Positions 5,949-34,340 of a stretch of DNA of 60,996 nt are shown here, in pieces (positions within the stretch are counted from its first letter, which is position 1; each line of letters begins with the position of its first letter). Position numbers and translations under genes: made by a program. Under the pieces are notes generated by a model. It was given only the letters and a program-made list of their open reading frames with translations. It ran no database searches and was not told the DNA's origin. The stretch comes from a virus, in the IMG/VR virus record IMGVR_UViG_2788500553_000001, positions 1 to 60,996 of that record, one strand, 5' to 3'.

Positions 5949-5966
5949 AACCGGGGTAACAGGCCG

Positions 5967-6455
5967 CTAAACCGAATCGTTCAAACAGCCGATGCTACAG
6001 AAAACGACGCCGTCGTACCGCTCGACCGGGTCGTCTATCTGCCCGCCACACTCCGGACAGGACCCACCGGACGAGGGATCGACGCGGACGGCTTCCTGAA
6101 GCCACAGTTTCGACGCCGGCCAACTGTACGGCTCGCCATCCCACGCATCCGCCCCGACGAGAAACACGTCATCAACCGGCGTAACATCCGAATCGTCCCA
6201 GTAACTGGTGATCGACTCCTCGGTGCCGTCGCCAGTCGTGATCGTGTGTTCGCCGGCAGGACGCGCCGACGGCTCCACTATCGATCCGTTGACGGTCCGG
6301 TCCGTCTTCGTTTGGGCGAAGACATCCGCGTCAACTAACGGGCGGCGAGAGACCTCACCGACCTTTCGCAACTCCGCTTCTAACGACGTGTCCCACGTCA
6401 AATCGAGTCCAGTCGGGTCCCTTTTGCCAATCCCCTCAAGCTTCGGCATCCTCAC
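5967..6455 (-). CDS. Hypothetical protein with C-terminal TRASH-like zinc finger
   Basis: CPECGG...FCSIGC. Confidence 0.6.
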   Translation of the reverse strand: MRMPKLEGIGKRDPTGLDLTWDTSLEAELRKVGEVSRRPLVDADVFAQTKTDRTVNGSIVEPSARPAGEHTITTGDGTEESITSYWDDSDVTPVDDVFLVGADAWDGEPYSWPASKLWLQEAVRVDPSSGGSCPECGGQIDDPVERYDGVVFCSIGCLNDSV

Positions 6456-7113
6456 CTCCCGACAGCGCCGTCAGAATCGACGCCGCCGTTTCCTCGCCGA
6501 TACCGTCGACACGCTGAAGCGCCTCCCAGTCGACATCCGAGACGAACGCCGTCATCGACGGCCACCGCTCGGCCAACGCCGCCGCCGTTTTCGGGCCGAC
6601 GCCGGGGAGACACGCGTACATCTGCGTCGTCACATCGGCGTCTCTGCCGGTGATGTCCGGGGAGGGCACGTACGACCGGCTCGGGTCCTCGACGTGCTTA
6701 CGCGCCAATCTCACGCCGAGATCGACGAGTAATTCGGTCGAGGAACACGGGATCACCGCCTCGATCCCGTTTTCCCGCGCCGTCGTCGACGCGATATGCC
6801 CGCGAACCGACGCCGGCGACATCCCCGACTGCCATAACTGCTCGGACTCGACGAGGTCGCCGTCGATCAGGATGTACGCCGTCTCGAACGCGTCGGCGAG
6901 CTTCTCGATCTGCTCGGTAATCCGCCCGTCCTCGATTGAAGCGACGTAGTCGTCGATCGTCTTCCGCTCGACGCCGACCGTGCCGAAGACGATGTCCGCC
7001 GCGGCCAACTCCTCACGCTCGACGCCGTCGACCTCCTCGTGTTCGGCGACCAACGCCGCCACCTCGACCGGCTCGCGCGTGTCGACGACGGCCGGCACCG
7101 ACTCCTTACTCAT
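6436..7113 (-). CDS. ERCC4 (XPF/Mus81/Hef-family) nuclease with tandem HhH
   Basis: VVDTRE, ADI...VERKT..D, R..EQ motifs; HhH motifs LPGVGPKTA and VDGIGEETA. Confidence 0.88.
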   Translation of the reverse strand: MSKESVPAVVDTREPVEVAALVAEHEEVDGVEREELAAADIVFGTVGVERKTIDDYVASIEDGRITEQIEKLADAFETAYILIDGDLVESEQLWQSGMSPASVRGHIASTTARENGIEAVIPCSSTELLVDLGVRLARKHVEDPSRSYVPSPDITGRDADVTTQMYACLPGVGPKTAAALAERWPSMTAFVSDVDWEALQRVDGIGEETAASILTALSGGEDAEA

Positions 7114-7373
7114 CGCCCATCCTCCTCCGTGTACCGCCACATCCGACGCCACCGCGAGTTACCCGACCGCTCCCGCTCCTCGAACCGCGAGTCCTCCTCT
7201 AACATCCAGACGACGCGGAGTTGATTGTGCGTTATTGTCTCTTCGTCGTACAGCTTGAGGATCTCGCGGGCCGTCACGTTCGTTTTCACATCGCCGTGAT
7301 CGACGACGAACCGTTCGAGGAGACGCTCCGCATCGTCGATGGTGAGTTTTTCAGGATTCTGGTAAAATGCCAT
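7110..7373 (-). CDS. Hypothetical protein (possible winged helix)
   Basis: Start reassigned to MAFYQN; ends in WRRMWRY. Confidence 0.5.
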   Translation of the reverse strand: MAFYQNPEKLTIDDAERLLERFVVDHGDVKTNVTAREILKLYDEETITHNQLRVVWMLEEDSRFEERERSGNSRWRRMWRYTEEDGR

Positions 7374-7716
7374 GTTCGACGACCTCCAGCGTCGCGGGGA
7401 TCGTTTGCTCGCCATTGCTCCGTTCGACAGCGAGTCTGTCGATATGCCGACCGACGTACACCCGCGTCCGGGGCGTTCCTTCACGTTCGATGTGAAGCCG
7501 CTGCTCGTACGGCTTCGTCTGATACCACTCCGCCGTCGGCATCCGCAGGACGATGTTATCCCGGTCGGATGCGACCGCGATTTGAAACTCATGGCCAATG
7601 CCCTGACACGTCACGAACTGCTCTTCTGGCGTCAGATGCCGCTCGACATATCGAATCGGCAAGCGCACGAACGACCGCGACGCATCGATAACGGAGAGTT
7701 CCACGTCAGTCGGCAC
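7351..7716 (-). CDS. Hypothetical protein
   Basis: 121-aa ORF with plausible composition, overlapping both neighbours. Confidence 0.5.
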   Translation of the reverse strand: MPTDVELSVIDASRSFVRLPIRYVERHLTPEEQFVTCQGIGHEFQIAVASDRDNIVLRMPTAEWYQTKPYEQRLHIEREGTPRTRVYVGRHIDRLAVERSNGEQTIPATLEVVEHGILPES

Positions 7717-8125
7717 CGGCAGTCACCTCCGACAGTTTTTGCTGAATTGAACACTTCACTTCATTTTGGTGTTCCTTCTCAGTGTGTCGGAAGTAACTCG
7801 GATAGGGGTGATACTCACCTGTGCCTTGGTCGAACACCAACACCTCGGCTTCGAGGATCGTCTCCGGCAGCAGCGCCGCCATGAACCCCCACGCCCCGGA
7901 CACCTGAAACGGCACGATGTACCGGTCGTTGAGCAGGTCGTCGGCCTGCGCCGCCAACTGCTCTCGATCGAGTTCGTGGTTATTGAAGTTCCAAATCGTC
8001 ATCCCGGCGACGCGGCGCGGACTCAACGCCCGCCGCCTGACGAACGATACCACCTCGTCGGGCGTCGTGCCGTTCTCGACCAGCAGCGCGTCGTCGAGAT
8101 ACGGCGTCCCGAAGCTCTGACTCAT
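7706..8125 (-). CDS. Hypothetical protein
   Basis: Start reassigned to MSQSFG (8125), preceded by GGTGA and the 24-nt repeat. Confidence 0.65.
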   Translation of the reverse strand: MSQSFGTPYLDDALLVENGTTPDEVVSFVRRRALSPRRVAGMTIWNFNNHELDREQLAAQADDLLNDRYIVPFQVSGAWGFMAALLPETILEAEVLVFDQGTGEYHPYPSYFRHTEKEHQNEVKCSIQQKLSEVTAGAD

Positions 8126-8133
8126 CGTCGTTT

Positions 8134-8439: not shown

Positions 8440-8444
8440 ACTGA

Positions 8445-8635: not shown

Positions 8636-8654
8636 AAAAATGAGAGTTAGCGCA

Positions 8655-9301: not shown

Positions 9302-9475
9302 CGTTTGAACACCGCCCTCTTGACTTCCGGCTCGCGCCTCGCTGTCCGGGCCGGACAGGCACACCCGACCGGGGTTCGGCAGGGCGTGATAACAGAGAGA
9401 TGGACGAGACACGCGCGTCTCTCGACCGCGACATCGTCGCAGGTGGAACGCGACGCGCCTCATCCGAAACCGCGT

Positions 9476-11611: not shown

Positions 11612-12787
11612 TTACCAGTTCTGACTGCTGATGTGTTGTTTGATGTCCTGTCGATCCTCCGGGTCGGCGCGGCCGACAAGCACCATCTCGGCCGCCGCCT
11701 CGAAGCTGCCGAGGCGGTCGGCCATCCGCGCCACCTGAACCACGTCGCGGGTACTGATCCACGTCGACGTTTTGCCCATCCGTTTCAGTGACCGAATACC
11801 GGTGACGACGCCGCCATCGTCGCGCAACAGCGTGTCGATCGCCGGGTCGTCTCGATCGAACGGCGTCTCCATCTCGATGACGCGGCGCTCCGCGTCCTCC
11901 GACAGCGGCGGGAGCCGGACCGGGTAGAACCGGCTCGATGTCGCCGCGTCGAGCATCTCGCGGCCACCGTACCCGACCTCGTTGGGGTTCATCGTGGCCG
12001 CGAAGATGAACTCGTCGTGCGGCTCGATGACCTGGTTCGTCTCGGGGATGACAATCTCCGACGAGTCCGCGTCTTCGAGGATTTTGTTCAACATCGTCTG
12101 GACTTTGCCGCTGAGGGCGTTGAACTCGTCCAGAACGAACATATAGCCGTGCCGCAGCGCCGTCGTCAACAGCCCTTCCTCGTACTCGAACCCGCCGTCC
12201 TCCGTCGGCTGATACGTGCCGACGAGGAGGTCGACGAAGTCCGGATCGTCGTTCGCGACGAGCCGAACCATCGGCCGGTTCGTCCGCGCCGCGATGTGTT
12301 CGAGGAGCGCGTCCTTCCCGATGCCGTGCTTGCCGATCAACAGCGTCGAGAAGTCGTCGTCGGCGAGCGCCGCCGTCACGACATCCACGTCCGTCTTCTT
12401 GTGTAGCTCACTCTCGTCGTCCTGACTCATCCGGCGCCGGATGTAGCCGGTGTTCGCGTGCCGGGGGACCTCCGGGTGACCCGTATCCTCTAACACGGGG
12501 AGCGACCCGAACGTCTCCGTCGTCGCCGCACCGGCATCTTCGGCGACCAACTCGTCGCTGTCGCCGTCGAACGCGTCCGCGAGGTGGTCGCTCGGCACGA
12601 CCATGTCGTCGGCGCCGGCGCGCTTCTCCTTCTCCGCGACCATGCTGTCGGCGACGTACTGCTTCGCCGTCGACTCCGCGATGTCGATCTCGGCGACCAA
12701 CTCGTCGACCGCACGATCGTACGGGACTTCGCCGTCGTTTTCGTGGAGTAACCGCTTCAACTGGGCCTCGGATTTCTGGGTTGCCAT
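11612..12787 (-). CDS. MoxR/CbbQ/CobS-like AAA+ ATPase
   Basis: Walker A GKHGIGKD, Walker B VLDEFN, FAATMNP, LDAATSSRF. Confidence 0.88.
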   Translation of the reverse strand: MATQKSEAQLKRLLHENDGEVPYDRAVDELVAEIDIAESTAKQYVADSMVAEKEKRAGADDMVVPSDHLADAFDGDSDELVAEDAGAATTETFGSLPVLEDTGHPEVPRHANTGYIRRRMSQDDESELHKKTDVDVVTAALADDDFSTLLIGKHGIGKDALLEHIAARTNRPMVRLVANDDPDFVDLLVGTYQPTEDGGFEYEEGLLTTALRHGYMFVLDEFNALSGKVQTMLNKILEDADSSEIVIPETNQVIEPHDEFIFAATMNPNEVGYGGREMLDAATSSRFYPVRLPPLSEDAERRVIEMETPFDRDDPAIDTLLRDDGGVVTGIRSLKRMGKTSTWISTRDVVQVARMADRLGSFEAAAEMVLVGRADPEDRQDIKQHISSQNW

Positions 12788-12913
12788 ATCGTTCGCACAC
12801 CTCCGTTATCGCCCGCTTAGCGACCCGACCGGGGATTTTTGGTGGGTTCGGGCCGGTCTACCACGTCACGGTGGGGCGACGCAGACCGGTAAAGGAGGAG
12901 CGGTGTGCCGGCG

Positions 12914-14544: not shown

Positions 14545-14810
14545 TACGCCATCACCTCGACGAACTCGCCGTTCTCGTCGACCTCGGCGATCGCGGCGTC
14601 GCTCGCGGGCTGTTCGACTCCGACCGGGGTAACGCGTTCTTCGCACATATCGCAAAACACTCCGTTTCGCCGTCGTACGGCTCATCAGGCCGGCTTCAGC
14701 CGGCGACGGATTGATGCGCCCCGTCGAGTGTTACTCGCGGGGGACTCACTTGCGCGACGCCCCCTCGTTTCCATGTCCGCTACTCGCGCGTCTGGCCTAA
14801 CCGCGCTTTG

Positions 14811-15355
14811 AAAAACGCCGCCGGAAGCTCACGCTGTACCGTCGACGGGATGACTACCTCGGTGTACGCTGTACGCCGTGTCGGCGCACGCGGTCGACTG
14901 GGCGGGGAACTCGGGGTCGCTGGCTCTCGCCTCGCCGTATCCCACGTCTAAGCCCCGTTTCCACGGACTGCCACTCAGGGCACGTCGGCGTCGGTCTGTG
15001 TCGTGACTTTACTCACACGGGCTCCGACGCTTTATCGCTCGACGCTGTCCGGCTCGCCAGCACCGCCGCTCACCGGACGAGATCGAACGCCCGCTGATCC
15101 ACACCCGAGGTTCCAGAGGCTCTCTGCGGCCGGCACCGCGCCGCGTCGAACGTGGGGATCCTCGCCCGACCGGGGTAGCGCCTTGCGCCCGCTTCCACTC
15201 GGGCACTCCGAACCGGCGCTGGTTCATGGACCTCCTCTCGGAACGTGCTTGACCGGGCAACCCCGGTCACGACCTGACCCCGCTTGGCGAGGGGCGTCGG
15301 CCGCTGTCGTCGCGTGGGTTCGCACACCGCAACTGCCTTCGCCTTCTTCTCACCC
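14811..15355 (-). ncRNA. Candidate large structured ncRNA (~545 nt)
   Basis: No acidic ORF; TATA-like TTTTATTAT upstream, TTTTT at the end, at least nine local hairpins. Confidence 0.5.
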
Positions 15356-15373
15356 GTACATACGTTCCGGGGG

Positions 15374-15382
15374 ATAATAAAA
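15374..15382 (-). promoter_or_regulatory. TATA box for leftward transcript (candidate ncRNA)
   Basis: TTTTATTAT on the minus strand within very GC-rich context. Confidence 0.55.
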
Positions 15383-15502
15383 CTTTACCTGTTCAAGCGA
15401 GGTTTGCCTATAAACATCCCCTCGACCTCCGGGGACTCCGGGGCTAACTCACCCCCAAACACCCCGTCAGACGAGGCGCAGATACTCGCGCGCGCTCCGC
15501 GC

Positions 15503-17128
15503 CTACCACGAGGTCGAGGAGGCCGAGTCCGAAGCCGGCACGATCGTCCGCCCGCCGCTGCTATTCCACAGGACACGATACCGCCGATTCGCCGCGTCGA
15601 GGCCGTCGTCGAACGCCGTCGCCACGTATTCGAGCGCGGTATGGAGGTCGCGGAGTGTCTTTTCGTCGAAGAACGAGTCGAGAAGGCGCCAAAATTCCGT
15701 GCCGACCGGCTCTCCGCCGATCGTCACGTTCGACTCATCCTCGCGGAGCATCGCGTCGAACGTCCGATTCATGTCGAGGATCTGCTGGAGGTTGTGAAGG
15801 ACGATCGGCGTCGAGTCGAGCGAGGTCTCGCCTGAGGCAATCGCGTCGAAGCCGCGATCGCGTTGCGTCCGTGTACACACCGGACATCGGCACGGGAAGA
15901 AGTCGAGTTCCGTCGGCGACAGGTATTCGTTCTCCTCTTCATCGCGCGTCGACAGGACCGTGAACCGGCGCCGCGCCGTGCGCGGCAACTCGAACCGCCG
16001 TGCCTTCGCGCCGTACGTGTGCGCGGTCGAGTCGGACGTAACCATCTGGTCGGTCCGACTGGCGTAGTACATCAGGAGCGGGAGCTGTTGCTCGCCCGAC
16101 ACCTGAAGGACGTGAATATACTCAGCGTCGTCGAGGTACTCGGCCGCGAACGCGAGATGATACGCCACCTGCCCGATCGACGTGGCCGGCTTCGGCGACA
16201 GCGTCCACGCACGGGGCTTTTGGAGGCCGGCGTCGGCCGCCCCATCGACCGCCCGCTTCCACCACTCGCGGGCGAGCTTGTGCGAGTCGTCGGCGCGGGG
16301 ATGCGGCCGGGCTTGGATCACCGGCGCGAACAGGTACCCCGCCGCGCCGTCGGCGCCGTCGTCGCGCAACTCCTGAAGTCGATGGCCCATCCGTTCGACC
16401 ATCTCGCGGTGCCGGACGGCGTGGTCGTAGAACTGCGACTCCCACTCACGGGTGAACTCGTCTTGCGCGGCGAAGTTTTGCGTCCCTTCGGTGTTACCGT
16501 ACGGCGGGAAGTCGATGGTCGAGCCGGCGTCGGCGTTCCGCACCTGCCACTCAACGAGCCGCTCCGGGTTGATCCGGTACTCGTTGAAGTCGTGGTCGGC
16601 CGGGTCATCGACCATTTCCGCGTCGTCGATCGTCACGAGTTGGAACCCGCCCGAGTCGGCGAAGATGAACTGCTCACCGCGCTCGAACCGAAACACGTCG
16701 CGGAAATCGTGTTCACTCAGGTCGACGCCGCCGATCCCCCCGGCCGGATTGACGAGCGCGAACGGATGCGCCGGCATCACGGAGTCGGACTCCCACCAAC
16801 TCATCTCATGGCCGTCGAGCAGGTAGTCGTGGTCGGCCTCGGTCGACGGCAGCCCGGTATCGATGTCGCGCCGGCTCCCGTATCGCTGCGCCGCGATCCG
16901 GGCGATCGAAAAGCCGAACACAGGCATGAACGTGTACCGTCCGCGCCGGAGGACCGACTCGACCGACCCCGCGCTCGTCACGGCGTCATCTGTTGACGAG
17001 ACACCGTCGTCTTCGGTGCCGTCCGCGCTCCATGTAGTATCGGACGCGGGGCTCCGGTTGACCATCTCGCCGCCGTCTGACCGCGTCTCTGGCGTCGGCC
17101 CCCACGCCGAGGGATCAGGCCCCGACAT
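15503..17128 (-). CDS. dpdA: DpdA / TGT-fold 7-deazaguanine transglycosylase, probably DNA-targeting
   Basis: TGT motifs FADSGGFQ, IDFPP, PVIQ, TSDS and Zn site CRCPVC...HN; no PUA domain; next to queF and yhhQ. Confidence 0.82.
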   Translation of the reverse strand: MSGPDPSAWGPTPETRSDGGEMVNRSPASDTTWSADGTEDDGVSSTDDAVTSAGSVESVLRRGRYTFMPVFGFSIARIAAQRYGSRRDIDTGLPSTEADHDYLLDGHEMSWWESDSVMPAHPFALVNPAGGIGGVDLSEHDFRDVFRFERGEQFIFADSGGFQLVTIDDAEMVDDPADHDFNEYRINPERLVEWQVRNADAGSTIDFPPYGNTEGTQNFAAQDEFTREWESQFYDHAVRHREMVERMGHRLQELRDDGADGAAGYLFAPVIQARPHPRADDSHKLAREWWKRAVDGAADAGLQKPRAWTLSPKPATSIGQVAYHLAFAAEYLDDAEYIHVLQVSGEQQLPLLMYYASRTDQMVTSDSTAHTYGAKARRFELPRTARRRFTVLSTRDEEENEYLSPTELDFFPCRCPVCTRTQRDRGFDAIASGETSLDSTPIVLHNLQQILDMNRTFDAMLREDESNVTIGGEPVGTEFWRLLDSFFDEKTLRDLHTALEYVATAFDDGLDAANRRYRVLWNSSGGRTIVPASDSASSTSW

Positions 17129-17684
17129 CCGCGCTCACCTCCAGCAACGCCTGATTCACTTCGATGAGGCGATGCGCGCGGTGATGCGGCACGTCGACAT
17201 CGCGGTTATACGGCTGGTCGTAGACGACGACCGTGCCGGGGGCATCCCGCTCCGCGACCGCGGCGGGGAGCCGTGGATCGTCGTCGACGTACACATCGTA
17301 ATCGAGGGCGGCTTTCGACCCGTCGACGCGGACGAACTCATCGAACTCGATGCCGTGGTCATCGAGCCACCGACGCCGATACTGTTCAGCGCCTTTGTGG
17401 TCGGGGTACTTCGAGACGATGTCGAGCGTGTCGACCTCCGGATGCGTCTTGATACTGTACGTCTGGAAGCTCGGCGCCGGCTCCATCGGCTCGATCTCCT
17501 GATGCCGGAGCGTCCACGCGTGCCACAGCGCAGACAGGTACCGGGCCTCACCGAACTCCTCTAACCCCCACTCCCACGACTCGATATCGGCGTACGAGTA
17601 GTCGTGGTCGGGGCCGCAGATGAGGTCGAACGCGACGCGACACGTCGCCGCGATCGTCGAGTCGAGGTCGAGGGCCACTCTCAT
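17115..17684 (-). CDS. HAD-superfamily 5'(3')-deoxyribonucleotidase (NT5C-like)
   Basis: Motif I ALDLDST and motif IV YVDDDP. Confidence 0.8.
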   Translation of the reverse strand: MRVALDLDSTIAATCRVAFDLICGPDHDYSYADIESWEWGLEEFGEARYLSALWHAWTLRHQEIEPMEPAPSFQTYSIKTHPEVDTLDIVSKYPDHKGAEQYRRRWLDDHGIEFDEFVRVDGSKAALDYDVYVDDDPRLPAAVAERDAPGTVVVYDQPYNRDVDVPHHRAHRLIEVNQALLEVSADVGA

Positions 17685-18127
17685 CGGTGTTCACCGTAGT
17701 CGCCGACCGTCAGGTCGTCAGGGTCCGTCTCACCACGCTTTACCTGACACGCCGCGGCGATGCCGGCGTACCCCGCCACATCGCGCGGATGGTCGATATC
17801 GTACTCGCCGACCGCGTTACGGCTCATCTTCAGGATCGCCATCATGTACGCGACATCGAGGCCGGTGAGTTCCTCGTGCGACGCGAGGATGCCTTGGCCA
17901 CGGAGATACCACGTCCAACCGTCGGCGATGTGCTCTTGATTTTCGACGGCGTCGCCGTGCGTGTCCCGGTCCGAGTCGACGAGCCGGCCAACGTCTTCCA
18001 ACACGTCGCGCGCCAGTTCGTCGCCGGTCGATCCGGGCGCCGGCTCCGGCTGGCCGTGCGCCACGTCCTCAACGCCAGTCGGGTCGCCATTAGTCATCGC
18101 TCGGCACCCCTGCGAACGACGACTCAT
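17681..18127 (-). CDS. DUF6378-like nucleotide-modification-associated protein
   Basis: DRDTHGDAVEN...IADGWTWYL...DVAYMMAILKMSR...DVAGYA pattern. Confidence 0.7.
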   Translation of the reverse strand: MSRRSQGCRAMTNGDPTGVEDVAHGQPEPAPGSTGDELARDVLEDVGRLVDSDRDTHGDAVENQEHIADGWTWYLRGQGILASHEELTGLDVAYMMAILKMSRNAVGEYDIDHPRDVAGYAGIAAACQVKRGETDPDDLTVGDYGEHR

Positions 18128-18818
18128 CGATCAGACCGGCCCGCTCCGCGAGGCCCGACGCGGCGTAGAACACCGCGGTATCGCCGGCCGCGAACACCAT
18201 CTTAATGATGTACTCCGTCGTGATGATGGAGATCGTCACGGCGAACGGCACGGTCGTTCCGCCAAACACCGGCGGCAGGATGATGAACGCGAGCCACGTC
18301 CAGACGGCCGTATCGACAAGTTGGGAGGTGCCGGTGCTGATCATGTTCCGCGCCCACTTGTGCCGGAAGCCGGTAACGCGGCGGACCGCGTGAAACACCG
18401 AAACATCGATGTTCTGCGACAGGATCAGCGACAGGACCGATGCGGTGACGATCGAGTACGACCCGCTCAGCACGGCGGCAAACTCCGATGCGAGGGAGTA
18501 ATCGGCCGCGGCGGGCATCCACACCGCGAACGAAACCATCGCGAACGTCGCCGCCAACGCGATGATCGTCGCGTTCACGACTCGCCGCGCCGTCTTCTTG
18601 CCGTACACCTCACTCAGCAGGTCGGTCATCAGGAACGACACGCCGATCATGAACGCGCCGACCGATCCCGTCATCTCCCCGAGGATCGGGAAGTCGTACA
18701 CCGCGAGTTTCGTCGCGGTGATGTTGGCCGTGACGAGCGACGCCACGAACAGCGCCACGATCGTCATCTTTACGAACGATGCGTCAAACGTCGTCGACAG
18801 CTTGGATTTCACAGACAT
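18090..18818 (-). CDS. yhhQ: Queuosine-precursor (preQ0/preQ1) transporter, YhhQ/VUT family
   Basis: ANITATK, TDLLSEVYGKKTAR, SQNIDV, RN.IST..SQLVDT; multiple TM helices; start reassigned to MSVKSK, directly after the motif. Confidence 0.9.
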   Translation of the reverse strand: MSVKSKLSTTFDASFVKMTIVALFVASLVTANITATKLAVYDFPILGEMTGSVGAFMIGVSFLMTDLLSEVYGKKTARRVVNATIIALAATFAMVSFAVWMPAAADYSLASEFAAVLSGSYSIVTASVLSLILSQNIDVSVFHAVRRVTGFRHKWARNMISTGTSQLVDTAVWTWLAFIILPPVFGGTTVPFAVTISIITTEYIIKMVFAAGDTAVFYAASGLAERAGLIDESSFAGVPSDD

Positions 18819-18838
18819 GACCGGGGTAACGATGGGAT

Positions 18839-19255
18839 TCAATTCGCGGACGATTCGCCTCGGGCGCCGGACCGCAGGATCTCGCGGTCGATCGCGCCGA
18901 ACTCGACTGTCTCCTCGATGCCGCCACGTCGCGCCTGTTCGAGACGAACGTAACAGTCGACGAGGTCGGCCGTCTCGGTGATGTCGCGGTATATCTCAGC
19001 CCCGAGGTTCTCGGCGCTGATTTCCGCCTCGCGCCACGACTCGACGTATTGTTTCAGCGACTTCGACTCGATGCCGGACTCACCGGGGATGTACCGGATG
19101 ACGAGCCGGTAAAAGTCTGGGCCGCCGAAGTCGAACGGGCAAAACGCCGTCAACTCCTCCGTATCAAACGACACAACACGGCCAGCGTCGATCGACGGCG
19201 CCGCGATTTCTTCGAGTAGTGCGCCACGTTCGTTCTTGACTTCGTGTTCATACAT
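18839..19255 (-). CDS. queF: QueF-type preQ0 nitrile reductase (unimodular T-fold)
   Basis: Catalytic C...PDF (CPFDFGGPDF), QueF motif ESKSLKQY, C-terminal RGGI. Confidence 0.85.
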   Translation of the reverse strand: MYEHEVKNERGALLEEIAAPSIDAGRVVSFDTEELTAFCPFDFGGPDFYRLVIRYIPGESGIESKSLKQYVESWREAEISAENLGAEIYRDITETADLVDCYVRLEQARRGGIEETVEFGAIDREILRSGARGESSAN

Positions 19256-19288
19256 GAGTGACCGGGGTAACGGTGTCTCTCACTCAAT

Positions 19289-21243: not shown

Positions 21244-21271
21244 TTTGACCGGGGTAACGTGGATCGGTATT

Positions 21272-24013
21272 TTACCAGCCCCAATCCGAGGCCGTATCTT
21301 CGTCGGCATCCGCAACGGCGCCCTGATCGTCGGTGTTCCACTCACCCGACCAGTCGCCGCCCGCGGCGCTCGTCGTCTGTGCGCCTTGCTTGAGTTCGGT
21401 CCACCGCCATCCGACCTCGTCGAGAATCGGTTCGAGCGGACTTTCTAACGCTCGTTCGAGGTGTTTGTCGATATCGAGGTCGAAGCCGTCAGGCACGTCA
21501 TCTGTCCAGTCAAGCGCCAAAACGTCGGTGCCGGGCGCCATCGTCGGCGTCGACTCTACGAAATACATCCACGGGTCGTCTCCAACACGCCAGTCAGCAT
21601 CGAGCGTCTGATTCGCGTACCGACAGGCACGGGCGACCTGCGTATTCCCGTAGTCGTCGAGCGGCTGCCCGAGCGACGACGGTAACGCGATCTCGTACGG
21701 CTCGATGTCGCCCGCCTCGATGTCGTCGATCAGGCCGCGGATGTACGCCGAAACCTCGTCGAACGACTCTCCAGCAAGGATGCGGTTGATCACCTCGGGC
21801 TGTGCGCGTTCAGTCAACTCCGGCGCGTCGGACCGCTGCGCCTCGAACCCCGTCGTATCGATATCACCGTCGACACGCTTGCCTTCCGTCCAGACGATCC
21901 GGCCGGCATACCGCTTTTTACTGCCGGCTTGGATGAACCGCCGGTAAAGCTTCTCGAACTCGTACACCAGCGCGTGCCGATCGGTGCCGTGTAACTCTCC
22001 GTCCGCGTCGAGGTATGGATGGGTGCCGGTGAGGTTCGAGGCGGCGACGCATCGATCCATGCCCTCGTTGATGTGTGCCTCTAACTCGTGTCCGCGGTCG
22101 AGGGCGGTTTCGATGTCTTCGTCCGGCTCCGCGAGCGATACGAGGACCGAGTCCGTATCTCCGTAAATCGTCTCGTAACCGCGTTTTTCGGCGATTTCCT
22201 TGCCCATCCACAGCGCATATCGCGCGGCGGACGTGACGGCGTCACCGAGGCCGTACTGCCCGAGGCGCCAGTAGTTATTCGACATCACCCCGTAGAACGA
22301 GTTCATCACGACCTTGATCGCCGCCTGTTTCCGGTCGTACACGCCGTACAACTCGTCTTCCGGGTCGTTCTCGTCGCGAAGCCGCTTGAACTTCGCTCGG
22401 CGCGGGAAGAGCCGGCGCAGATACTTCGGGATGAGCCCCTCGGTCGACAGGTCCGACCACATCGTATCGAAGCCGATCGCGTCATGGCCGAACTCCCCGC
22501 CGTCGGCCTCGTCGGCGTTCGGGAGCCACGGGATATCGATCGTCTGCGGCACCGGGCCGGGTTCCATGTCGTCGTAGAAGTGCGTTGTCTCGGGGCTGAT
22601 ATTCCACGTAATAATGACCGAGGGATACAGCGACTTGAGGTCGACCACACCGACCCACTCCTCGATGCCGTCGGCCGGCGTCAGCACCAGTCCGCCGTCG
22701 TTCGGCGGGATGTCCGACTCCTCCATCGACGGCAGAATCTCGGCGTCGCTCGACTGCGACATGAGGTAACCGTCGACGAGCCGCATCGTCTGCGACGTAT
22801 CCGACAGCTCCACCTGACACAACTCGGCGAGTTCGAGGTGAAACTCGTGGATCGCCTCGTGGCGATCGAGCGCGACCGTCAGCGCCACGTCGATAATATT
22901 GTACGCGAGCAGGTCAGACGGCCGGTTCTCGAACGCGTCGGTGATATCGACGTTCGGCATCTTCCCCACGTCCAACTTCCGCTTGGCGACGTAGTCGAGG
23001 CCTTTTGAGCGCCACTCGCCGAACGACATCGTCTCGGTGAAGCCGTCCATCATGTCGAACGCGGGGAGGCCGTCGACCATCCGCGGCAGCTTCCGCCGGC
23101 GCGACGCGTAGCCCGTATCAGACAGTTCGTGGCGAGTCACGTCGCCGAGGTCCAACTCCGCCATCCGACCGAGCAGGTAGTCCCAGTCAAACTCCACCCA
23201 GTTCCACCCGCTCGTCACATCCGGCCGCCGTTTCTCGACGAGCCGGATAAACCCGCGTAACAACGCGCTCTCGTCGTCAAACCGACGGAGGGTAATGGGC
23301 CGGTCGACTTCCTCGGCTACCGCGTCTGCGTCGAGATGCGCGTTTAACGCGTCGCTGACCGCGTCGGGTTCGACCGCGCCGTCGGGATCGAGGTACAACG
23401 CGATGTACTCGTCTTCGTACGAGTCCCACGCCGTGATATGGCTAATTGGCTGGCTATACTCATCGAGGAGTTCGGGGATCGTCAGCCCCGCGTCGAACTG
23501 TAACACCTCGATATCTGCGATCAGGAGACGGGGTTCAATCGGGTCCGACGGCATCGCCGGGTCCGTCTCAATCGCGTCGATCGAGCAGCGACGCGTCTCC
23601 GGCACGCGGATGTACCCGGAGAGGTCGTAGTCGATCGTACACCGGCGGTAGTACGGGATGTCCGCCTCATGGTCGTCATCGACTGCGTCGGCCAACTCGC
23701 CGGCGTGTTGCGGCGTCAGCGTGTCGACGCGGGAGAGCGGTTTTCCGTCGTACGACTCGAAGCCACTCGTCACGTCACGAACGCGTTTGTCGTCAGAAAC
23801 AGCATCGACTTCGTCGTCAGGAACGTACAGGTACGGCACCGTGCCGTCAATTTGTATCGTCCGCCGATCTCCACACTCGTCGCGACCGGCGGCGGTCACT
23901 ACGATCGTCCCGTCGTCCTCGATGTCGTGGCTCAGCGACGTGACGCGCATCAGCACGTCACGCTCGTCAGCCACGGATGAGCCCGACCGGGGTTCTTGGG
24001 CCATCGTCGTCAT
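21272..24013 (-). CDS. polB: Family B DNA polymerase with 3'-5' exonuclease
   Basis: Exo I DIE, exo II GWN...FDWDYL, YNIID; polymerase motifs DLKSLYPS, KVVMNSFYG, YGDTDS. Confidence 0.97.
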   Translation of the reverse strand: MTTMAQEPRSGSSVADERDVLMRVTSLSHDIEDDGTIVVTAAGRDECGDRRTIQIDGTVPYLYVPDDEVDAVSDDKRVRDVTSGFESYDGKPLSRVDTLTPQHAGELADAVDDDHEADIPYYRRCTIDYDLSGYIRVPETRRCSIDAIETDPAMPSDPIEPRLLIADIEVLQFDAGLTIPELLDEYSQPISHITAWDSYEDEYIALYLDPDGAVEPDAVSDALNAHLDADAVAEEVDRPITLRRFDDESALLRGFIRLVEKRRPDVTSGWNWVEFDWDYLLGRMAELDLGDVTRHELSDTGYASRRRKLPRMVDGLPAFDMMDGFTETMSFGEWRSKGLDYVAKRKLDVGKMPNVDITDAFENRPSDLLAYNIIDVALTVALDRHEAIHEFHLELAELCQVELSDTSQTMRLVDGYLMSQSSDAEILPSMEESDIPPNDGGLVLTPADGIEEWVGVVDLKSLYPSVIITWNISPETTHFYDDMEPGPVPQTIDIPWLPNADEADGGEFGHDAIGFDTMWSDLSTEGLIPKYLRRLFPRRAKFKRLRDENDPEDELYGVYDRKQAAIKVVMNSFYGVMSNNYWRLGQYGLGDAVTSAARYALWMGKEIAEKRGYETIYGDTDSVLVSLAEPDEDIETALDRGHELEAHINEGMDRCVAASNLTGTHPYLDADGELHGTDRHALVYEFEKLYRRFIQAGSKKRYAGRIVWTEGKRVDGDIDTTGFEAQRSDAPELTERAQPEVINRILAGESFDEVSAYIRGLIDDIEAGDIEPYEIALPSSLGQPLDDYGNTQVARACRYANQTLDADWRVGDDPWMYFVESTPTMAPGTDVLALDWTDDVPDGFDLDIDKHLERALESPLEPILDEVGWRWTELKQGAQTTSAAGGDWSGEWNTDDQGAVADADEDTASDWGW

Positions 24014-27208: not shown

Positions 27209-28428
27209 CGCGACTCACCTCGAGGAGTATCTCCACCGGGGTAACCGTACATCGGGCAGGATTCGGGATCATCAGCCCGAGTACAGAGACCTTTATTCAT
27301 AAGCGTCGAACAGCTCCATGTTCCGGTATTGTTCTCATACAGGCTCTCTAACTGGTATTCCGTCACGTCACGGTCGTAGTCCGCCCAGCCCAACTGCGCG
27401 ATCAACTCGCCCGCCTCCGCCGGTGTCATGCCCGACGCCAACAGCAGCGTGCCGAGTTGAACACGCACGTCGTTCGGCGGATTCCGACCGAGCGCCCGCT
27501 CGTAGACGCACGGCATCTCGGTCATCTCGCGGATCACCCGCTCGGCGACCTCGTTATCGACCGCCGTGACCTCCGGCACTTCTCGCATCTGCTCTTGGCC
27601 GAACTCGTCCGCGTCCGGCCCCTTGTACGCCTCTCGCACCGTCAACTCCGGCCGTTCCTCCGCCCCGATCGACAGCGACGGCCGCGGCGAGTCCGCGAGG
27701 TCGAGCAGCTCCTCGGGCGTGATGTCCGCCAACTCCTCGCCCGTCAACGGCACCTGAACCGCCGCCGTCGGGATCGACGTGCCGCCGCTGTGATCGACAC
27801 GCCGGAGGTTCGGCACGCGGAGGATCCGGTACTCACGGCCCGTCGCCCGCGAGTCGACCGTCGGCAACTCCAACTCGCTCACCCACCGCCGGGCGTTGGT
27901 CTGAACCTTCAGCCCCGGCCGGGAGGCGGTCGACTCGTACAACTGGTGTACGTGGAGGCCGAGGCCAGAGAACACGCCACACACGGGGATGTCGGCGTCC
28001 CGTGAGGCGCGGGCCAACTGCCGGGCATCATCGCACACGTCGCCCAGCACGGCGTCTCGCACGTCTGCGTCGGTCCGCATCCGTTCGATGATGTCGCCAT
28101 CGCGAGCGTCGTCGGGGATGAGCGGATGCGCCCAGCGCCGATCGGCGTCCGGCGCCGCTTTCGCCGCTGAGTCGAGGTCGAACGACACCTTATCGATCGC
28201 GACGGCGTTGCCGACATATTCGCCGCCGTCGACAAGCGGCTGATACGACGCGACCGAGGCGTAGAGGTTCCGTTCGTTACGGACCTGCTCGATGACGCCT
28301 TTCATTTCTGACGCTGAGTTCACGAGGTACTGGCGAAGGCCGCCGTCACCGTACGGGTCAGACACCCCCACGGCCCGCGGAAATTCGCCGAACAGCGTTC
28401 GGGTCGGCGCGGTAAGCGCATCCATCAC
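27205..28428 (-). CDS. Archaeo-eukaryotic primase, PriS catalytic domain fused to a PriL-type Fe-S C-terminal domain
   Basis: FDLD, FSGLGLHVH, RILRVPN; C-terminal MPC...R...DYDRDVTEYQL...SC.TL...GLC...C. Confidence 0.8.
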   Translation of the reverse strand: MMDALTAPTRTLFGEFPRAVGVSDPYGDGGLRQYLVNSASEMKGVIEQVRNERNLYASVASYQPLVDGGEYVGNAVAIDKVSFDLDSAAKAAPDADRRWAHPLIPDDARDGDIIERMRTDADVRDAVLGDVCDDARQLARASRDADIPVCGVFSGLGLHVHQLYESTASRPGLKVQTNARRWVSELELPTVDSRATGREYRILRVPNLRRVDHSGGTSIPTAAVQVPLTGEELADITPEELLDLADSPRPSLSIGAEERPELTVREAYKGPDADEFGQEQMREVPEVTAVDNEVAERVIREMTEMPCVYERALGRNPPNDVRVQLGTLLLASGMTPAEAGELIAQLGWADYDRDVTEYQLESLYENNTGTWSCSTLMNKGLCTRADDPESCPMYGYPGGDTPRGESR

Positions 28429-28436: not shown

Positions 28437-29309
28437 TCACGCCGAGACGGAGCCGACGATGTGGCGGATCGTATGGTCCTCGCGGTCAGCGACGAACGCG
28501 AGCGGGTTATTCCCCGGCGCCGTCTGGAGTTCGACTTGCCCAGACAGCACGTTCAACACCTCCTCGAAGCCGTCGTGATAGGTGTTCTCGACATCGGGGC
28601 CGCTCACGCTCCGCGTCGGCAGCGTCCCGCGAGCGCCGGAGCCGGACTCGTCGCCAACGTCGACGCGAAGCTCGCCGTCTTCGACGACGATCGGGTAGAA
28701 CTCCGCCTGCGCGTCTTCTTCGACGAGGTCGACGATGCGGTCGAGCGTCTCGGCTTTCAACTCAACCTGCGTCGGCGCCGGATCGCCGGCCGGGTTCGTG
28801 TACTGCTCCTCATCGTTGAATCGGTCGGCCAGCCAGAACGGCACGTCTTCGAGGGCCGCCTCCGAACCGGGCAGTTTCGTCCAGGTGTTGAGCGACGGGC
28901 CGACCGCCCGGATGTGCGACGCGAGCCGCGTGTCCGAACTGCCCGTCAACTCGACCTCGACCGTATCGCCCGCATCGCCGGCGAAGTCGAGGTACGTCAG
29001 GGTATCGGCCACGTTCCAGATGGCCTCGGCACCCGTCTCGAACTCGAACTCGTCGCCGCTCGTGTCGATCGCCGTCTGCGTGGTCGCGTCGGCCGCGACT
29101 TCCAACTCCGTGAAGTAGTCCTCACGGAAGGTCGCGTACGTCAGCACGACTTCACCGGGAGCCGCCTGAAACACGTCGAGCCGATCCTCATGTACGTCGA
29201 TGTAGAGGTCGGAATGTTCGGTTTCGCCGCTGAGCGACGTTTTCTCGATAATCTGTGCGATTTCGCTAAGCGTAGCTCGCAGGGTCGCGAGCGTCTCGTT
29301 CTGACTCAT
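28437..29309 (-). CDS. Divergent PCNA-like sliding clamp (putative)
   Basis: 290 aa, beta-rich; YIDVHEDRLDVFQAAPGEVVLTYATFREDYF parallels the PCNA N-terminal pattern; both RFC subunits are encoded nearby. Confidence 0.5.
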   Translation of the reverse strand: MSQNETLATLRATLSEIAQIIEKTSLSGETEHSDLYIDVHEDRLDVFQAAPGEVVLTYATFREDYFTELEVAADATTQTAIDTSGDEFEFETGAEAIWNVADTLTYLDFAGDAGDTVEVELTGSSDTRLASHIRAVGPSLNTWTKLPGSEAALEDVPFWLADRFNDEEQYTNPAGDPAPTQVELKAETLDRIVDLVEEDAQAEFYPIVVEDGELRVDVGDESGSGARGTLPTRSVSGPDVENTYHDGFEEVLNVLSGQVELQTAPGNNPLAFVADREDHTIRHIVGSVSA

Positions 29310-29330
29310 GTGTGACCGGGGTATGTCGGG

Positions 29331-31128: not shown

Positions 31129-32169
31129 TTAGATGGTGTCTTCCTCGATGGCTTCGTCATCGGCGCCATCGGAGCCGGCGTCTTCGTAGCGATCCCCGTC
31201 GTAGGGGAACTCGACGATCGGGATCGCCCCGAACGCCATCATGCGATACTGGCCGTCGTCGCGTTGGATGAGATAGCCGTACACGTCGAGAACCGACCCC
31301 TCGCCGTACATCAACTCGTTTACCATGTCGACTTGAAGGCCGGGCGTCCGCATCTGGTCGGAGACCAGCTCGTCTGGCACGTCGGCCTCGGTCATGATCG
31401 TGTCGTCGGACAGCGTCAACAGCCCACTCTCCTCGAACTGAACGCCGTCGACGACGTTGCCCCGGAACCGCTTGATGTCGACCCCGAGGCCCGCCGCCCA
31501 GCCGTTCGCGTTTTCCGTCGCGACATGGTCCGCGAAGTTTTGGAGGGTGACGGCGTCGGCCTCCGTAATGAAGTTCTGATGGATCATCTCCCGCTTCGGC
31601 TCTCGATCGGCCGGGAGGTCAGCGATCGGGTCGCCCGCCCCGGCATCGGCCGGATCGACCTGCTCTAACACCGTATCCTCAGTCGACTCCATCACGTAGG
31701 CCGGGGCGCCGCCTTTCTTGATCGTCGGCGTATTATCGTACGTCCCGCACCGCCGGACATCGGCCGCTACACGGCACGTCTCAAGCGGCCGCATCGACCG
31801 TTTCGCGTGGTCGATGTCGACGCCATCGTCACCGTCGATCAGAAAAGTGGCGACGCCAGCCGGCCCGTCGTCGGGGTTGATGACTCCGGCGGCCCGGATC
31901 CCGTAGTCGGCCAACCCCGTCTCCATGCGATAGCCAAGCGCCAACATCGGCACCGTTTCGGTATCAGCCGACCCGCCGCCCGAGAGGTTGATGTCGGACT
32001 TGACGACGTTAAACGCCTGCTGCCGCATCTCGTCGGCCGGCTCCTCCGACACGACGAGCCCTTCATCGTTCCACTCGGCGAGCTTCGCCTCAATCGCGTC
32101 GCTGATTTCGGCTTCTGTTTTCTCGCTCGATTCTGCCAACGCCGCGATTTGTTCCGCTAAGTCACTCAC
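31129..32169 (-). CDS. Putative ssDNA-binding (RPA/OB-fold) protein
   Basis: GTG start; N-terminal helical bundle then OB-like strands (LTLSDDT; VLDVYGYL...YRMMAFG); next to recombinases. Confidence 0.45.
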   Translation of the reverse strand: MSDLAEQIAALAESSEKTEAEISDAIEAKLAEWNDEGLVVSEEPADEMRQQAFNVVKSDINLSGGGSADTETVPMLALGYRMETGLADYGIRAAGVINPDDGPAGVATFLIDGDDGVDIDHAKRSMRPLETCRVAADVRRCGTYDNTPTIKKGGAPAYVMESTEDTVLEQVDPADAGAGDPIADLPADREPKREMIHQNFITEADAVTLQNFADHVATENANGWAAGLGVDIKRFRGNVVDGVQFEESGLLTLSDDTIMTEADVPDELVSDQMRTPGLQVDMVNELMYGEGSVLDVYGYLIQRDDGQYRMMAFGAIPIVEFPYDGDRYEDAGSDGADDEAIEEDTI

Positions 32170-32311
32170 ACTTGACCTGCCGCCCGACCGGGGTAGGTAG
32201 GCGACACCCGACCATACACGGTGGGTAGGGAAATAACACCCCCTGAACGTCTCGGGCCAGACGTAACACGGGAGGGCAAACCCTCGCCGGCCTTTACACA
32301 TCGACGGACCG

Positions 32312-33358
32312 ATGTCCGACCTTCAATCCCTATCCGGCGTCGGGCCGGGCAAGGAGTCGAAGTTGCGAGATGCCGGTATCGAGTCAGTCAACGAGCTGGC
32401 GAACGCCGACCTCGACACGCTCGAGAACGCCGGTATCCGACAAGCCGAAACGATCCTCGACCGCGCTCAGCGTCAGGGAGTCCAGATACAGAGTGGCGTG
32501 GCGGTCGAAGAAGAGCAACAGGAAGCCGCGAAAGTGACGACTTCGCTTCCCGAGGTTGACGCCATGATGGGCGGCGGCCTCCGCGGCGGGTTCATCGTCG
32601 GCGTGAGCGGAGAGTCGAAAGCCGGCAAGACGCAGTTCGCCTTACAGTCGCTTGTCGCTGCCGCTCAGTATCATGTCGGTGAAGCGGTGTATATCGAAAC
32701 TGAGCCAAACCGTTTTCAAACTGAGCGGCTTCGCTCTCTCATCCGTGACGATGGGGAAATGGGGGAAAACATACGAAAGGGGGTAAATGGGGAAGACGGT
32801 CTAGACGGTCTAGATGATCAAGACGATCGAGACGATCGTCATGAAGAATATCTCGACGATCCTCGAACCGATCCACGAGACGTATTGAGTCATATCCATA
32901 AGATCGAGGCATATGAGCCAGACGACGATGTCGACAACCTTCGTGTTCAACGCAACTCATACGATGCGGTTCGAGAGACGTTCGATGAAGTATCGATCGT
33001 CGTCGTTGACTCGTTCATCGCGAACTTCCGACTAAGTGGAGAGTTTACCGATCGATCAGACCTCCCCGATCGTAACGCAGTTATCGCCGATCACCTCGAA
33101 GCGATACAATCACTCTCCAACGACTTCGATTGTCCTGTTCTACTCACACTTCAGGTTCAGGGTGACCCCGATGCGTACTCCGGTTCGGACTTCAGCTTAT
33201 GGGGACCGGTCCTGATGGATCATACGATCACTCATCTGCTCCACCTGACGCACGGTAAAGGCGACAAGAAACAGGTAGAACTGAAGGGACATCCGTCTCA
33301 GCCCGACGACGAGGTAACTTTACATATACCGGAAGACGAACCGCTTATCTCGGCATAA
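32312..33358 (+). CDS. radA: RadA-like recombinase
   Basis: N-terminal HhH (LSGVGPG), VDAMMGGG, Walker A GESKAGKT, YIETE, VVVDSFIANFR. Confidence 0.85.
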   Translation: MSDLQSLSGVGPGKESKLRDAGIESVNELANADLDTLENAGIRQAETILDRAQRQGVQIQSGVAVEEEQQEAAKVTTSLPEVDAMMGGGLRGGFIVGVSGESKAGKTQFALQSLVAAAQYHVGEAVYIETEPNRFQTERLRSLIRDDGEMGENIRKGVNGEDGLDGLDDQDDRDDRHEEYLDDPRTDPRDVLSHIHKIEAYEPDDDVDNLRVQRNSYDAVRETFDEVSIVVVDSFIANFRLSGEFTDRSDLPDRNAVIADHLEAIQSLSNDFDCPVLLTLQVQGDPDAYSGSDFSLWGPVLMDHTITHLLHLTHGKGDKKQVELKGHPSQPDDEVTLHIPEDEPLISA

Positions 33359-33414
33359 GTTAAACAACTCGACGTTCGTGTGCCAAGCGATAGACATCTG
33401 TCCGATTTTCTCTG

Positions 33415-33499
33415 AAAAAGTTTTATTAGGCCGGCCGGTTAATGGTCGGATGAGACGGTTTCCACCGTCTCGTCAGGCACTCAGCCCGACCGGGGTAAC
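33415..33499 (-). ncRNA. Candidate ~85-nt small RNA convergent with radA
   Basis: Begins at the TTACCCCGGTC motif; hairpins TCGGGC-TGAGT-GCCTGA and GAGACGGT-GGAA-ACCGTCTC; ends in TTTTT. Confidence 0.4.
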
Positions 33500-33656
33500 G
33501 ATTGGGCCTTGGAGGGGAGGTGTGTCTTCCACACTTCGCACCTTCCCCGCCTGTCTTTCTACGGAGTGACTTCAGTAATTCCACCCGCCATCGATGTGGT
33601 GCCACTATTCATAGGTGTTAAGGTGTAATTATCAGATGCCCCACGCGGCCCTTCCC

Positions 33657-33736
33657 TTACCCCGGTCGGGCGACTGCGTGGGCTGCCCAACACGACGGGG
33701 AGAGTGTAGCATAAGTCCCCGGACAGCCCCCACGCC
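33657..33736 (+). promoter_or_regulatory. Motif plus structured 5' leader of the late operon
   Basis: TAATTAT ~30 nt upstream, TTACCCCGGTC, then GCGTGGG/CCCACGC and CGGGGA/TCCCCG helices closing 1 nt before ATG 33737. Confidence 0.5.
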
Positions 33737-34270
33737 ATGTCAATCTTCAAGGACATCCAACGCGACCCGGATGTGTGTAACAACTGTTTCAGACGGACCC
33801 ACACCCGGTATTCGCGGGAGTACGCAGTTGACTGGGTGTACGACCCATCAGAGCGGGACTACGACTTCTGGCCTCGCCTCGTCGACCACGGCGAAGAGGT
33901 ACGGCGACGGCGTGGGGAGACGACAAAGGTGCCTGACGAGACGCCCGCCGGTGGCATGACAACGACGTGTAAGTGTGGCGTCCAGTACGTGCCGCCGGAG
34001 GACCTCGCCGACGATGAGACGTGGAAGATTCGCCCGATGCCGAAACGGCTGTTTTTCGAGGCGGCCGAGCGGCTGGCGGATCGAGTGAGCGAACATGATG
34101 CCGTCGCGTCGTTGGATCGCGACGACTTTCTGGCCCTGCTCGACGAGTGGAAGTCAGACCCGGATGAACAGTTTCGCGACGATCGCCTGTTTGAGCGGGC
34201 GGTCGAGCGAACCGTAACGAAACACGCCGCCGACGATGGGAGTCAAGATGCCGCTCGAAACGTGCCCTAA
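33737..34270 (+). CDS. Hypothetical protein with zinc-binding cysteines
   Basis: CNNC and CKC; first gene of the rightward operon. Confidence 0.7.
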   Translation: MSIFKDIQRDPDVCNNCFRRTHTRYSREYAVDWVYDPSERDYDFWPRLVDHGEEVRRRRGETTKVPDETPAGGMTTTCKCGVQYVPPEDLADDETWKIRPMPKRLFFEAAERLADRVSEHDAVASLDRDDFLALLDEWKSDPDEQFRDDRLFERAVERTVTKHAADDGSQDAARNVP

Positions 34271-34340
34271 CTGCGATTGGCCGGTTTCGGAGTATCACGA
34301 AACCTGCCCGCGATGCGATACCCCGGTCGAGCATGAGTAA
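34248..34340 (+). CDS. 30-aa double-CxxC microprotein (not in ORF track)
   Basis: MPLETCPNCDWPVSEYHETCPRCDTPVEHE. Confidence 0.6.
   Translation: MPLETCPNCDWPVSEYHETCPRCDTPVEHE

Follow-up and report, generated by a model that had tools for sequence, protein, structure and literature searches.

The sequence analyzed here is a stand-alone provirus record from IMG/VR (IMGVR_UViG_2788500553_000001; 60,996 bp, referred to below as the window), in which a 10-bp word, TACCCCGGTC, recurs at gene starts. The left end of the window consists of host genes encoding a GNAT acetyltransferase and a CBS/DUF7573 protein, 65 to 73% identical to Halorubrum proteins, followed by a tyrosine integrase gene at 1602-2918; no tRNA gene was identified in the window. 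The integrase carries a C-terminal zinc ribbon and adjoins the Halorubrum-like host genes (1352-2918). A gene map based on G+C content at third codon positions (GC3) placed a minus-strand arm at 4.3 to 32.2 kb and a plus-strand arm from 33.7 kb on. The family-B DNA polymerase (PolB) shared ∼45% identity with the PolB of HVTV-1, HCTV-1, HCTV-5, and HCTV-16 and 55 to 67% identity with that of uncultured relatives. The element is an integrated tailed provirus of a haloarchaeon, distantly related to HVTV-1; to our knowledge, cultured members of the HVTV-1 group have been described only as lytic viruses.

In addition to PolB, the left arm encodes clamp-loader (RFC)-type AAA ATPases, a Dam methylase, a PD-(D/E)XK nuclease, QueF, YhhQ/Vut_1, a weak TGT-like protein, MoxR, vWA, and the nucleases ERCC4 and Hjc. 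A 290-aa protein encoded at 28437-29309 on the minus strand gave no Pfam, NCBIfam, or PDB sequence match, and its structural model (pLDDT, 89.9) had a PCNA-type fold that aligned to archaeal PCNAs in Foldseek (E value, ∼1e-12). Its family, phrog_25687 ("unknown function"), is present in all relatives, beside the clamp-loader genes. The yhhQ (Vut_1) and queF assignments of an earlier note, made from the letters of this DNA alone, were upheld, and the gene it called clamp-like is predicted to encode a PCNA fold. In the right arm, genes for a 177-aa protein and an exonuclease precede those for the small terminase, large terminase, portal, and structural proteins. The apparent gap between the arms is filled by a RadA/Rad51-like gene (32312-33358, plus strand), which has an unusually low GC3 and was missed by the GC3-based caller; in its product, an acidic insert rich in Gly and Asp separates the Walker A region from the Rad51 core. 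YhhQ, QueF, and the weak TGT-like protein lie at 15503-19255, where two syntenic contigs of relatives (L018 and L019; ∼77 kb each, examined in parts rather than as whole records) carry QueC, QueD, and GTP cyclohydrolase I instead. Within the window, beyond which the rest of the virus lies, this gene set suggests salvage of 7-deazaguanine precursors. The genes marked by the word number about a dozen and include those for the PCNA-like clamp, PolB, QueF, YhhQ, the exonuclease, and zinc-ribbon proteins; from their annotations, the genes served form one functional class, replication and DNA modification.

Ten exact copies of TACCCCGGTC occur in the window, against 0.14 expected from dinucleotide-preserving shuffles, none of which held more than one; the observation of the earlier note is confirmed. 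Eight copies lie on the minus strand (14622, 15168, 18819, 19260, 21247, 29314, 32186, and 33488); the other two, at 33658 and 34319, are on the plus strand, as listed before, with one plus-strand coordinate corrected from 33657 to 33658. One-mismatch matches numbered 20 in the window (5.6 expected), the core CCCCGGTC was found 17 times (5.3 expected), and the longer form CCCCGGTCGGG was found 7 times (0.16 expected). Meaningful one-mismatch copies were located at 5949 (TACCCCGGTT) and at 9367, 23985, and, on the plus strand, 15259 (all AACCCCGGTC). A copy at 12827 (ATCCCCGGTC) has two mismatches and an intact core; four or five variants keep the core. Three of the one-mismatch copies proposed in the earlier note were retained (5949, given as 5950; 9367; and 15259 on the plus strand), 12827 was reclassified as a two-mismatch copy, and 27234 (given as 27235) was judged incidental; 23985, which is 10 nt ahead of the PolB start, was absent from that list. 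The near-copy at 27234-27243 on the minus strand, TACCCCGGTG, falls inside protein-coding sequence (CPMYxYPGG) that is also preserved in the nearest relative.

The aligned sites, 15 in the site statistics below, give the extended consensus (C)GT-TACCCCGGTC-R. The copies at 33488, 32186, and 15168 have a GGGC form, which contains a weak dyad (CCCG-GT-CGGG), and the copy at 33658 has a TACCCCGGTCGGGC form. No exact copy was found past 34328, and the terminase, portal, and structural module (>36 kb) is copy-free; core 8-mers at 41678 and 49306, in the structural arm, are within chance expectation. The earlier note had included a late operon in the proposed regulon. This was not borne out, as the right-arm copies precede the genes for the 177-aa protein and the exonuclease.

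As stand-ins for the host, the analysis used 257 genomes of its family and three from Halorubrum, none of them being the provirus's own. The word was present in 4 to 9 copies in each of the three Halorubrum genomes and in 0 to 18 copies per genome across the family (∼1.7 per Mb), compared with a density of ∼500 per Mb in the provirus (10 copies in 20 kb). Positions of the copies were inspected in the three from Halorubrum, in another 27, and in the five with the highest counts, and no cluster was seen in any of these. Nearly all of 18 inspected Halorubrum copies were coding, encoding Tyr-Pro-Gly, and none stood ahead of a start codon. Two intergenic host copies (L237 and L242) were isolated and unrelated to the provirus. 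A chance or codon-driven origin was ruled out, since the host copies are Tyr-Pro-Gly codons in genes and the provirus copies are non-coding. The word is specific to the virus; equal frequency in the host, which the earlier note had named as grounds for abandoning the idea, was not seen in the 257 family genomes, among which the provirus's own host is not included.

All 10 exact copies are co-oriented with local transcription, in agreement with the earlier reading, and all 10 lie within the non-coding 9.6% of positions 4308 to 35607 (P = 6e-11), with the copy at 34319 the only one that overlaps a micro-open reading frame (micro-ORF), of 34 codons with CxxC motifs. For internal genes of the virus, the usual arrangement is either a start that overlaps the stop codon of the preceding gene or a GGAGGTGA-type Shine-Dalgarno sequence. 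Neither is present at eight genes of the left arm, and in seven of these the word ends 0 to 16 nt before the start codon. Where the word stands 26 to 78 nt upstream of the start (genes starting at 27208, 12787, and 14544), a GGAGGTG-type Shine-Dalgarno sequence is present in all three cases, the copy ahead of 27208 being the probably incidental one at 27234; the leaders of 65 nt (9367) and 69 nt (33658) have no clear Shine-Dalgarno sequence. The word itself has no GGAGG-like core. This dichotomy is the strongest functional clue and suggests that the word has a role in expression. Such a pattern would be expected if mRNA 5′ ends formed right after the word, as close ATGs would then yield leaderless mRNAs. 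Leaderless initiation is the main mode in haloarchaea and accounts for 72% of Haloferax volcanii transcripts (PMC4983044).

Start distances comprised six ATGs 0 to 5 nt away and further copies 10 to 77 nt upstream; the six ATGs placed 0 to 4 nt past the word by the earlier note (5949, 18819, 19260, 21247, 29314, and 34319) were all recovered. On the minus strand, the variant TACCCCGGTT (5949-5958) occupies an 18-nt spacer and abuts the ATG of an 81-aa zinc-ribbon gene (5703-5948), and the exact copy at 18819-18828 abuts the ATG of yhhQ/Vut_1 (18090-18818), with a TATA-like aattgaat within the 3′ end of queF. The exact copy at 19260-19269 is 4 nt ahead of the queF ATG (18839-19255) and has a TATA-like gaattgag at −29 to −22. 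At 21247-21256, the copy takes the full form CGT-TACCCCGGTC-A, the ATG of a 56-aa zinc-ribbon gene (21073-21243) follows after 3 nt, and TAAAATA is found at −28 to −22, overlapping the PolB stop codon. The copy at 29314-29323 lies in a 21-nt spacer, 4 nt from the ATG of the PCNA-like clamp gene, with neither a Shine-Dalgarno sequence nor a TATA-like box. On the plus strand, the copy at 34319-34328 is 4 nt from the exonuclease ATG (34333-35607) and overlaps the last codons of the micro-ORF (34236-34340), which encodes a CxxC...CxxC zinc ribbon and itself overlaps the 177-aa protein gene at its end and the exonuclease gene at its start. Small CxxC genes are also found downstream of the copies at 5949 and 21247.

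At the remaining sites the start codon is farther away. On the minus strand, the variant AACCCCGGTCGGGC (23985-23994) precedes the GTG of PolB (23974), with a TATA-like ATAAT at about −30, and the GGGC-form copy at 32186-32195 precedes by 16 nt the GTG of the first left-arm gene (31129-32169; phrog_24900). The variant AACCCCGGTCGGG (9367-9376) is separated from a likely ATG at 9301 by its 65-nt leader and has a TATA-like gttatc at −27 to −22. The two-mismatch variant ATCCCCGGTCGGG (12827-12836) is 39 nt ahead of the ATG of a MoxR-type AAA gene (11612-12787), and the exact copy at 14622-14631 is followed by a 77-nt leader leading to the ATG at 14544 of an 84-aa gene; the latter copy lies downstream of a T5 run at 14811-14815 and has a TATA-like gatatg at −30 to −25. 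The earlier note had assigned longer structured leaders to a second class of copies. This was not supported, in that three leaders tested after GGGC-form copies folded no better than shuffles (z = -1.0, +0.1, and -0.3).

Two divergent copies occupy the region between the arms. The copy at 33658-33667 (plus strand) heads the right arm and is followed by its 69-nt leader to the ATG at 33737 of the 177-aa protein gene, with no TATA-like box at −33 to −21. Its partner at 33488-33497 (minus strand) is of the GGGC form, and the pair sits in a 25-nt inverted repeat (33484-33508/33647-33671). Reading leftward from the 33488 copy is a unit of ∼72 nt lacking an open reading frame (ORF) (33415-33487, minus strand; z = -2.3), which consists of GGGC, a perfect 8-bp hairpin, and then a T5 run at 33415-33419; this ORF-less unit resembles a small-RNA unit and is a candidate for one. 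A second pair, the GGGC-form exact copy at 15168-15177 (minus strand) and its inverted partner AACCCCGGTC at 15259-15268 (plus strand), lies inside a ∼545-nt non-coding stretch (14811-15414, minus strand) with strong TATA-like boxes at 15372-15414 and the T5 run at 14811-14815. In HVTV-1, a close match to the promoter word of this stretch (ttttattatccc...atgtac) lies upstream of gene 83, a gene preceded by a 305-nt gap. No Rfam match was found in the window.

At every one of the 15 sites the base directly after the word is a purine, and 13 have C at position −1. A/T-rich, TATA-like hexamers occur at −33 to −21 at 6 of the 15 sites, against a background of 7.4% (P = 4.6e-4), and two of the six lie inside upstream coding ends. 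Upstream of −13, no sequence common to the 15 sites was identified. Haloarchaeal promoters are characterized by a TTWT TATA box, centred at about −26 to −28, and a WW element at −10, and many mapped starts in H. volcanii also have no recognizable basal elements (PMC4983044). If transcription starts at the purine following the word, the word would occupy promoter positions −10 to −1, placing TA at −10/−9, in agreement with the WW element, and creating a pyrimidine/purine initiator. The word is invariant, and it is therefore reasonable to suppose that a sequence-specific factor reads it.

On balance, we favor, with moderate confidence, the reading that the word is the start-site-proximal half of a virus-specific class of early/middle promoters and is probably bound by a putative regulator. 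Host RNA polymerase with TBP and TFB would initiate at the purine immediately 3′ to the word, with TA at −10/−9 acting as WW and TC|R as the initiator. An ATG 0 to 5 nt downstream would give a leaderless mRNA, and longer leaders would depend on a Shine-Dalgarno sequence. The invariant G+C-rich CCCCGG, which is not a host promoter feature, would be bound by a sequence-specific regulator, most likely one encoded by the virus, which could either aid initiation at TATA-poor copies or occlude the promoters in the lysogen. The latter is favored by archaeal precedent, as most archaeal and archaeoviral regulators are repressors with sites overlapping the start site (PMC5569661). Several small CxxC proteins and unannotated proteins of the lysogeny module (2921-4300) are candidate regulators, and Pfam, PHROGs, NCBIfam, and Atlas gave nothing usable for the 177-aa and 178-aa proteins. 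None of the large unannotated proteins is evidently an RNA polymerase, and archaeal viruses are not known to have one (PMC5569661). We propose that the programme driven by these promoters comprises genes for replication, recombination, and 7-deazaguanine DNA modification.

Several observations weigh against a promoter role. A TATA-like box is unclear or absent at 9 of the 15 sites, including the central divergent pair, and where one is present its distance from the word varies by about 13 to 20 nt. At 33658, the only A/T patch is at −42 to −35, which would put the start where the word begins instead of past its end. The G+C-rich stretch at −8 to −3 should hinder melting. The gene at 19639 is uncoupled and lacks both a Shine-Dalgarno sequence and a copy of the word. 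Two features were counted as not fitting, namely the ∼545-nt region, which has its own strong TATA boxes and T5 terminator, and the 12-bp inverted repeat formed by the copies at 15168 and 15259, 77 nt apart. No helix-turn-helix (HTH) or ribbon-helix-helix repressor was found among the viral proteins by Pfam, PHROGs, NCBIfam, or Atlas. Finally, the word is absent in every relative found, and conservation is therefore unusable as evidence.

As the main rival reading, the copies could instead be stoperator-like sites, at which a lysogeny repressor bound to the asymmetric word blocks host polymerase in an orientation-dependent manner and silences the early arm, with no role in positioning starts; we regard this as possible but rather unlikely. 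The element is integrated and has a tyrosine integrase, and L5-type stoperators are asymmetric 13-mers present in more than 20 copies per genome, oriented with transcription and located at promoters or in short gaps (PMC9283540), a description matched by the 10 to 14 conserved, co-oriented copies in 18- to 33-nt spacers. That several copies have no TATA-like box and that the two inverted pairs resemble operator dyads would also fit, as would the prevalence of start-site-overlapping repressors among archaeal and archaeoviral regulators (PMC5569661). However, this explanation does not account for genes right after the word having neither a Shine-Dalgarno sequence nor coupling while distant ones have the former, for the enrichment of TATA-like boxes at promoter distance, or for the ORF-less unit after 33488. 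Known stoperators span whole genomes, whereas the structural arm here is copy-free, and the searches with Pfam, PHROGs, NCBIfam, and Atlas yielded no HTH repressor of the kind required. The explanation also partly overlaps the promoter reading, since a repressor could bind the start-proximal word, and the two are linked because archaeal precedent favors a repressor at such a position.

A more radical version of the promoter reading, in which the word is a self-sufficient, TATA-independent signal and a viral factor on CCCCGG (−8 to −3) recruits or positions the host polymerase, appears decidedly unlikely. Were it true, a 10-bp element alone would create a promoter inside junctions of 18 to 21 nt, making it an archaeal counterpart of sigma-type −10 promoters; we know of no such counterpart described for archaeal viruses. 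Also unlikely is a function at the RNA level, with long transcripts cut just 3′ of UACCCCGGUC to yield leaderless mRNAs or with the word serving as target of the complementary GACCGGGGUU at 15259-15268. Cleavage would account for starts lacking a Shine-Dalgarno sequence at the TATA-less copies 29314 and 34319 as well as a promoter does, the scarcity of T5 terminators makes long left-arm transcripts plausible, and the word and its complement both occur in the non-coding region, forming a 12-bp helix. The enrichment of TATA-like boxes at promoter distance argues against it, as do the lack of stable structure in the word itself and in the leaders and the lack of an Rfam match in the window. Nucleases that recognize a 10-mer of this kind are not known, and an antisense RNA would have no target in mRNAs that start after the word.

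It is very improbable that the copies are mainly recombination joints or the footprint of a small mobile element spread between gene cassettes in the manner of T4-type promoter-stem-loops (PeSLs). The 21-nt insert at the clamp junction is nearly all word and relatives have no spacer there, the copy-bearing QueF and YhhQ genes stand where L018 and L019 have QueC, QueD, and GTP cyclohydrolase, and gene-start motifs of HGTV-1 are, in the summary given in PMC3950731, compared with PeSLs. Core genes (PolB, the clamp, and the first arm gene) are also preceded by copies, though, no flanking repeats or target duplications were found, and the strict start-codon register together with the Shine-Dalgarno dichotomy points to expression. 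A methylation, restriction, or 7-deazaguanine target, a Chi-like site, a primase site, and origin iterons were all rejected, as none predicts placement in start-codon register at gene starts only.

Among published systems, the closest in kind is the class I intergenic-repeat promoter of HF2 (Russ, Pfeiffer and Dyall-Smith 2021; PMC8707807), also an oriented repeat between genes that stands ahead of early/middle genes in a tailed virus of haloarchaea. Activity requires its conserved gamma block, which extends over the start site from −7 to +1, a geometry that the word matches, and virus-encoded factors acting on the repeats have been proposed (PMC8707807). The HF2 repeats differ in being 56 to 58 bp long with a conserved TATA box and B recognition element (BRE) (at about −26 and −33), compared with only 10 to 14 bp near the presumed start here; they are kept across the genus, whereas the present word is absent from all relatives found; and their starts and activity were measured, whereas those of the word are predicted from sequence. 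Stoperators of L5 and cluster A resemble the present copies in being short, asymmetric, numerous, and transcription oriented, at promoters and in very short gaps of a temperate virus, but they belong to a bacterial host, occur in both arms, and are bound by a known repressor with an HTH and a stoperator domain (PMC9283540), whereas here copies are restricted to the early region and the Shine-Dalgarno pattern points to start-site formation. The start-associated sequences of cluster K (Pope et al. 2011; PMC3203893) are also asymmetric words, 3 to 7 bp before the ATG, in one orientation, in the non-structural half, rare in the host, and of unproven function. They contain an AGGAG Shine-Dalgarno core, are thought to be translational, and are conserved in the cluster, whereas the word here has no such core and replaces the Shine-Dalgarno sequence. 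As summarized in PMC3950731, a motif of HGTV-1 (Sencilo et al. 2013) precedes most ORFs of one haloviral arm, has been proposed to act in transcription and possibly in gene shuffling, and has been likened to T4 PeSLs; in that summary it combines a TATA-like stretch with an inverted repeat, whereas the present sites have no conserved TATA and only a weak dyad. The GTC element of SIRV1 and SIRV2 (Kessler et al. 2004, as reported in PMC5569661) is likewise a virus-specific element, located downstream of TATA in most viral promoters and additional to the host basal elements, but it is described there as a trinucleotide of crenarchaeal rudiviruses rather than a 10-mer that ends at −1 and is often TATA-less.

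The word recalls T4 late promoters, the analogy drawn in the earlier note, in being a compact −10 element with no upstream element that fits tight junctions and defines a viral regulon. T4 late promoters carry TATAAATA at −10, which is read by gp55. They depend on a phage sigma factor, are A/T-rich, and serve late genes, whereas the word is G+C-rich and serves early/middle genes, and archaea have no sigma factor. The likeness is therefore a loose one. In archaeal viruses, which rely on the TBP and TFB of the host, no RNA polymerase gene is known (PMC5569661).

The timing of expression in archaeal viruses is little understood, and the measured cases are few (the HF2 repeats, the GTC element of SIRV, and a few repressors). 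Here, one 10-bp word would define ∼14 transcription units of a whole replication and 7-deazaguanine programme in a temperate relative of the lytic HVTV-1 group. Start signals are known in other haloviruses; this one differs from the HF2 form in that only the proximal part is conserved, that it is G+C-rich, and that it is private to one lineage. Confirmed starts would provide a handle for the regulator, a test of whether TATA-less archaeal promoters can function given a start-proximal factor, and a co-regulated promoter set for haloarchaeal genetics, and a repressor site would represent the first stoperator-like system in archaea.

Neither the word nor an equivalent gene-start word was found in HVTV-1, L018, L019, L229, L230, L231, or L263, of which L229 and L263 are the nearest relatives (63 to 67% identity, same G+C content). 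De novo k-mer searches in the relatives returned coding repeats only, and their few intergenic gaps hold ordinary TATA promoters. At the clamp junction, where the provirus has its 21-nt spacer, the genes are 2 nt apart in L019 and overlap by 8 nt in L230 and L263. Scanning IMG/VR with 14-mers gave single chance matches only, and searching metagenome contigs with a two-copy gapped pattern gave 11 chance matches with no proteins in common; neither revealed another virus carrying the word. A PolB search in genome and viral contigs returned no relatives. From this distribution, the word looks like a recent innovation of one lineage. The relatives have a BRE/TATA-type promoter word of their own, GGAAAC...GCTTAA, ∼35 to 45 nt before starts (L230:2100-2164, L230:9450-9514, L231:150-221, and L018:440-501), unlike the start-proximal word described here. 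The closest PolB relative (67% identity; L229:2325-6251) is 1308 aa long and has Hint and LAGLIDADG matches, and it probably contains an intein.

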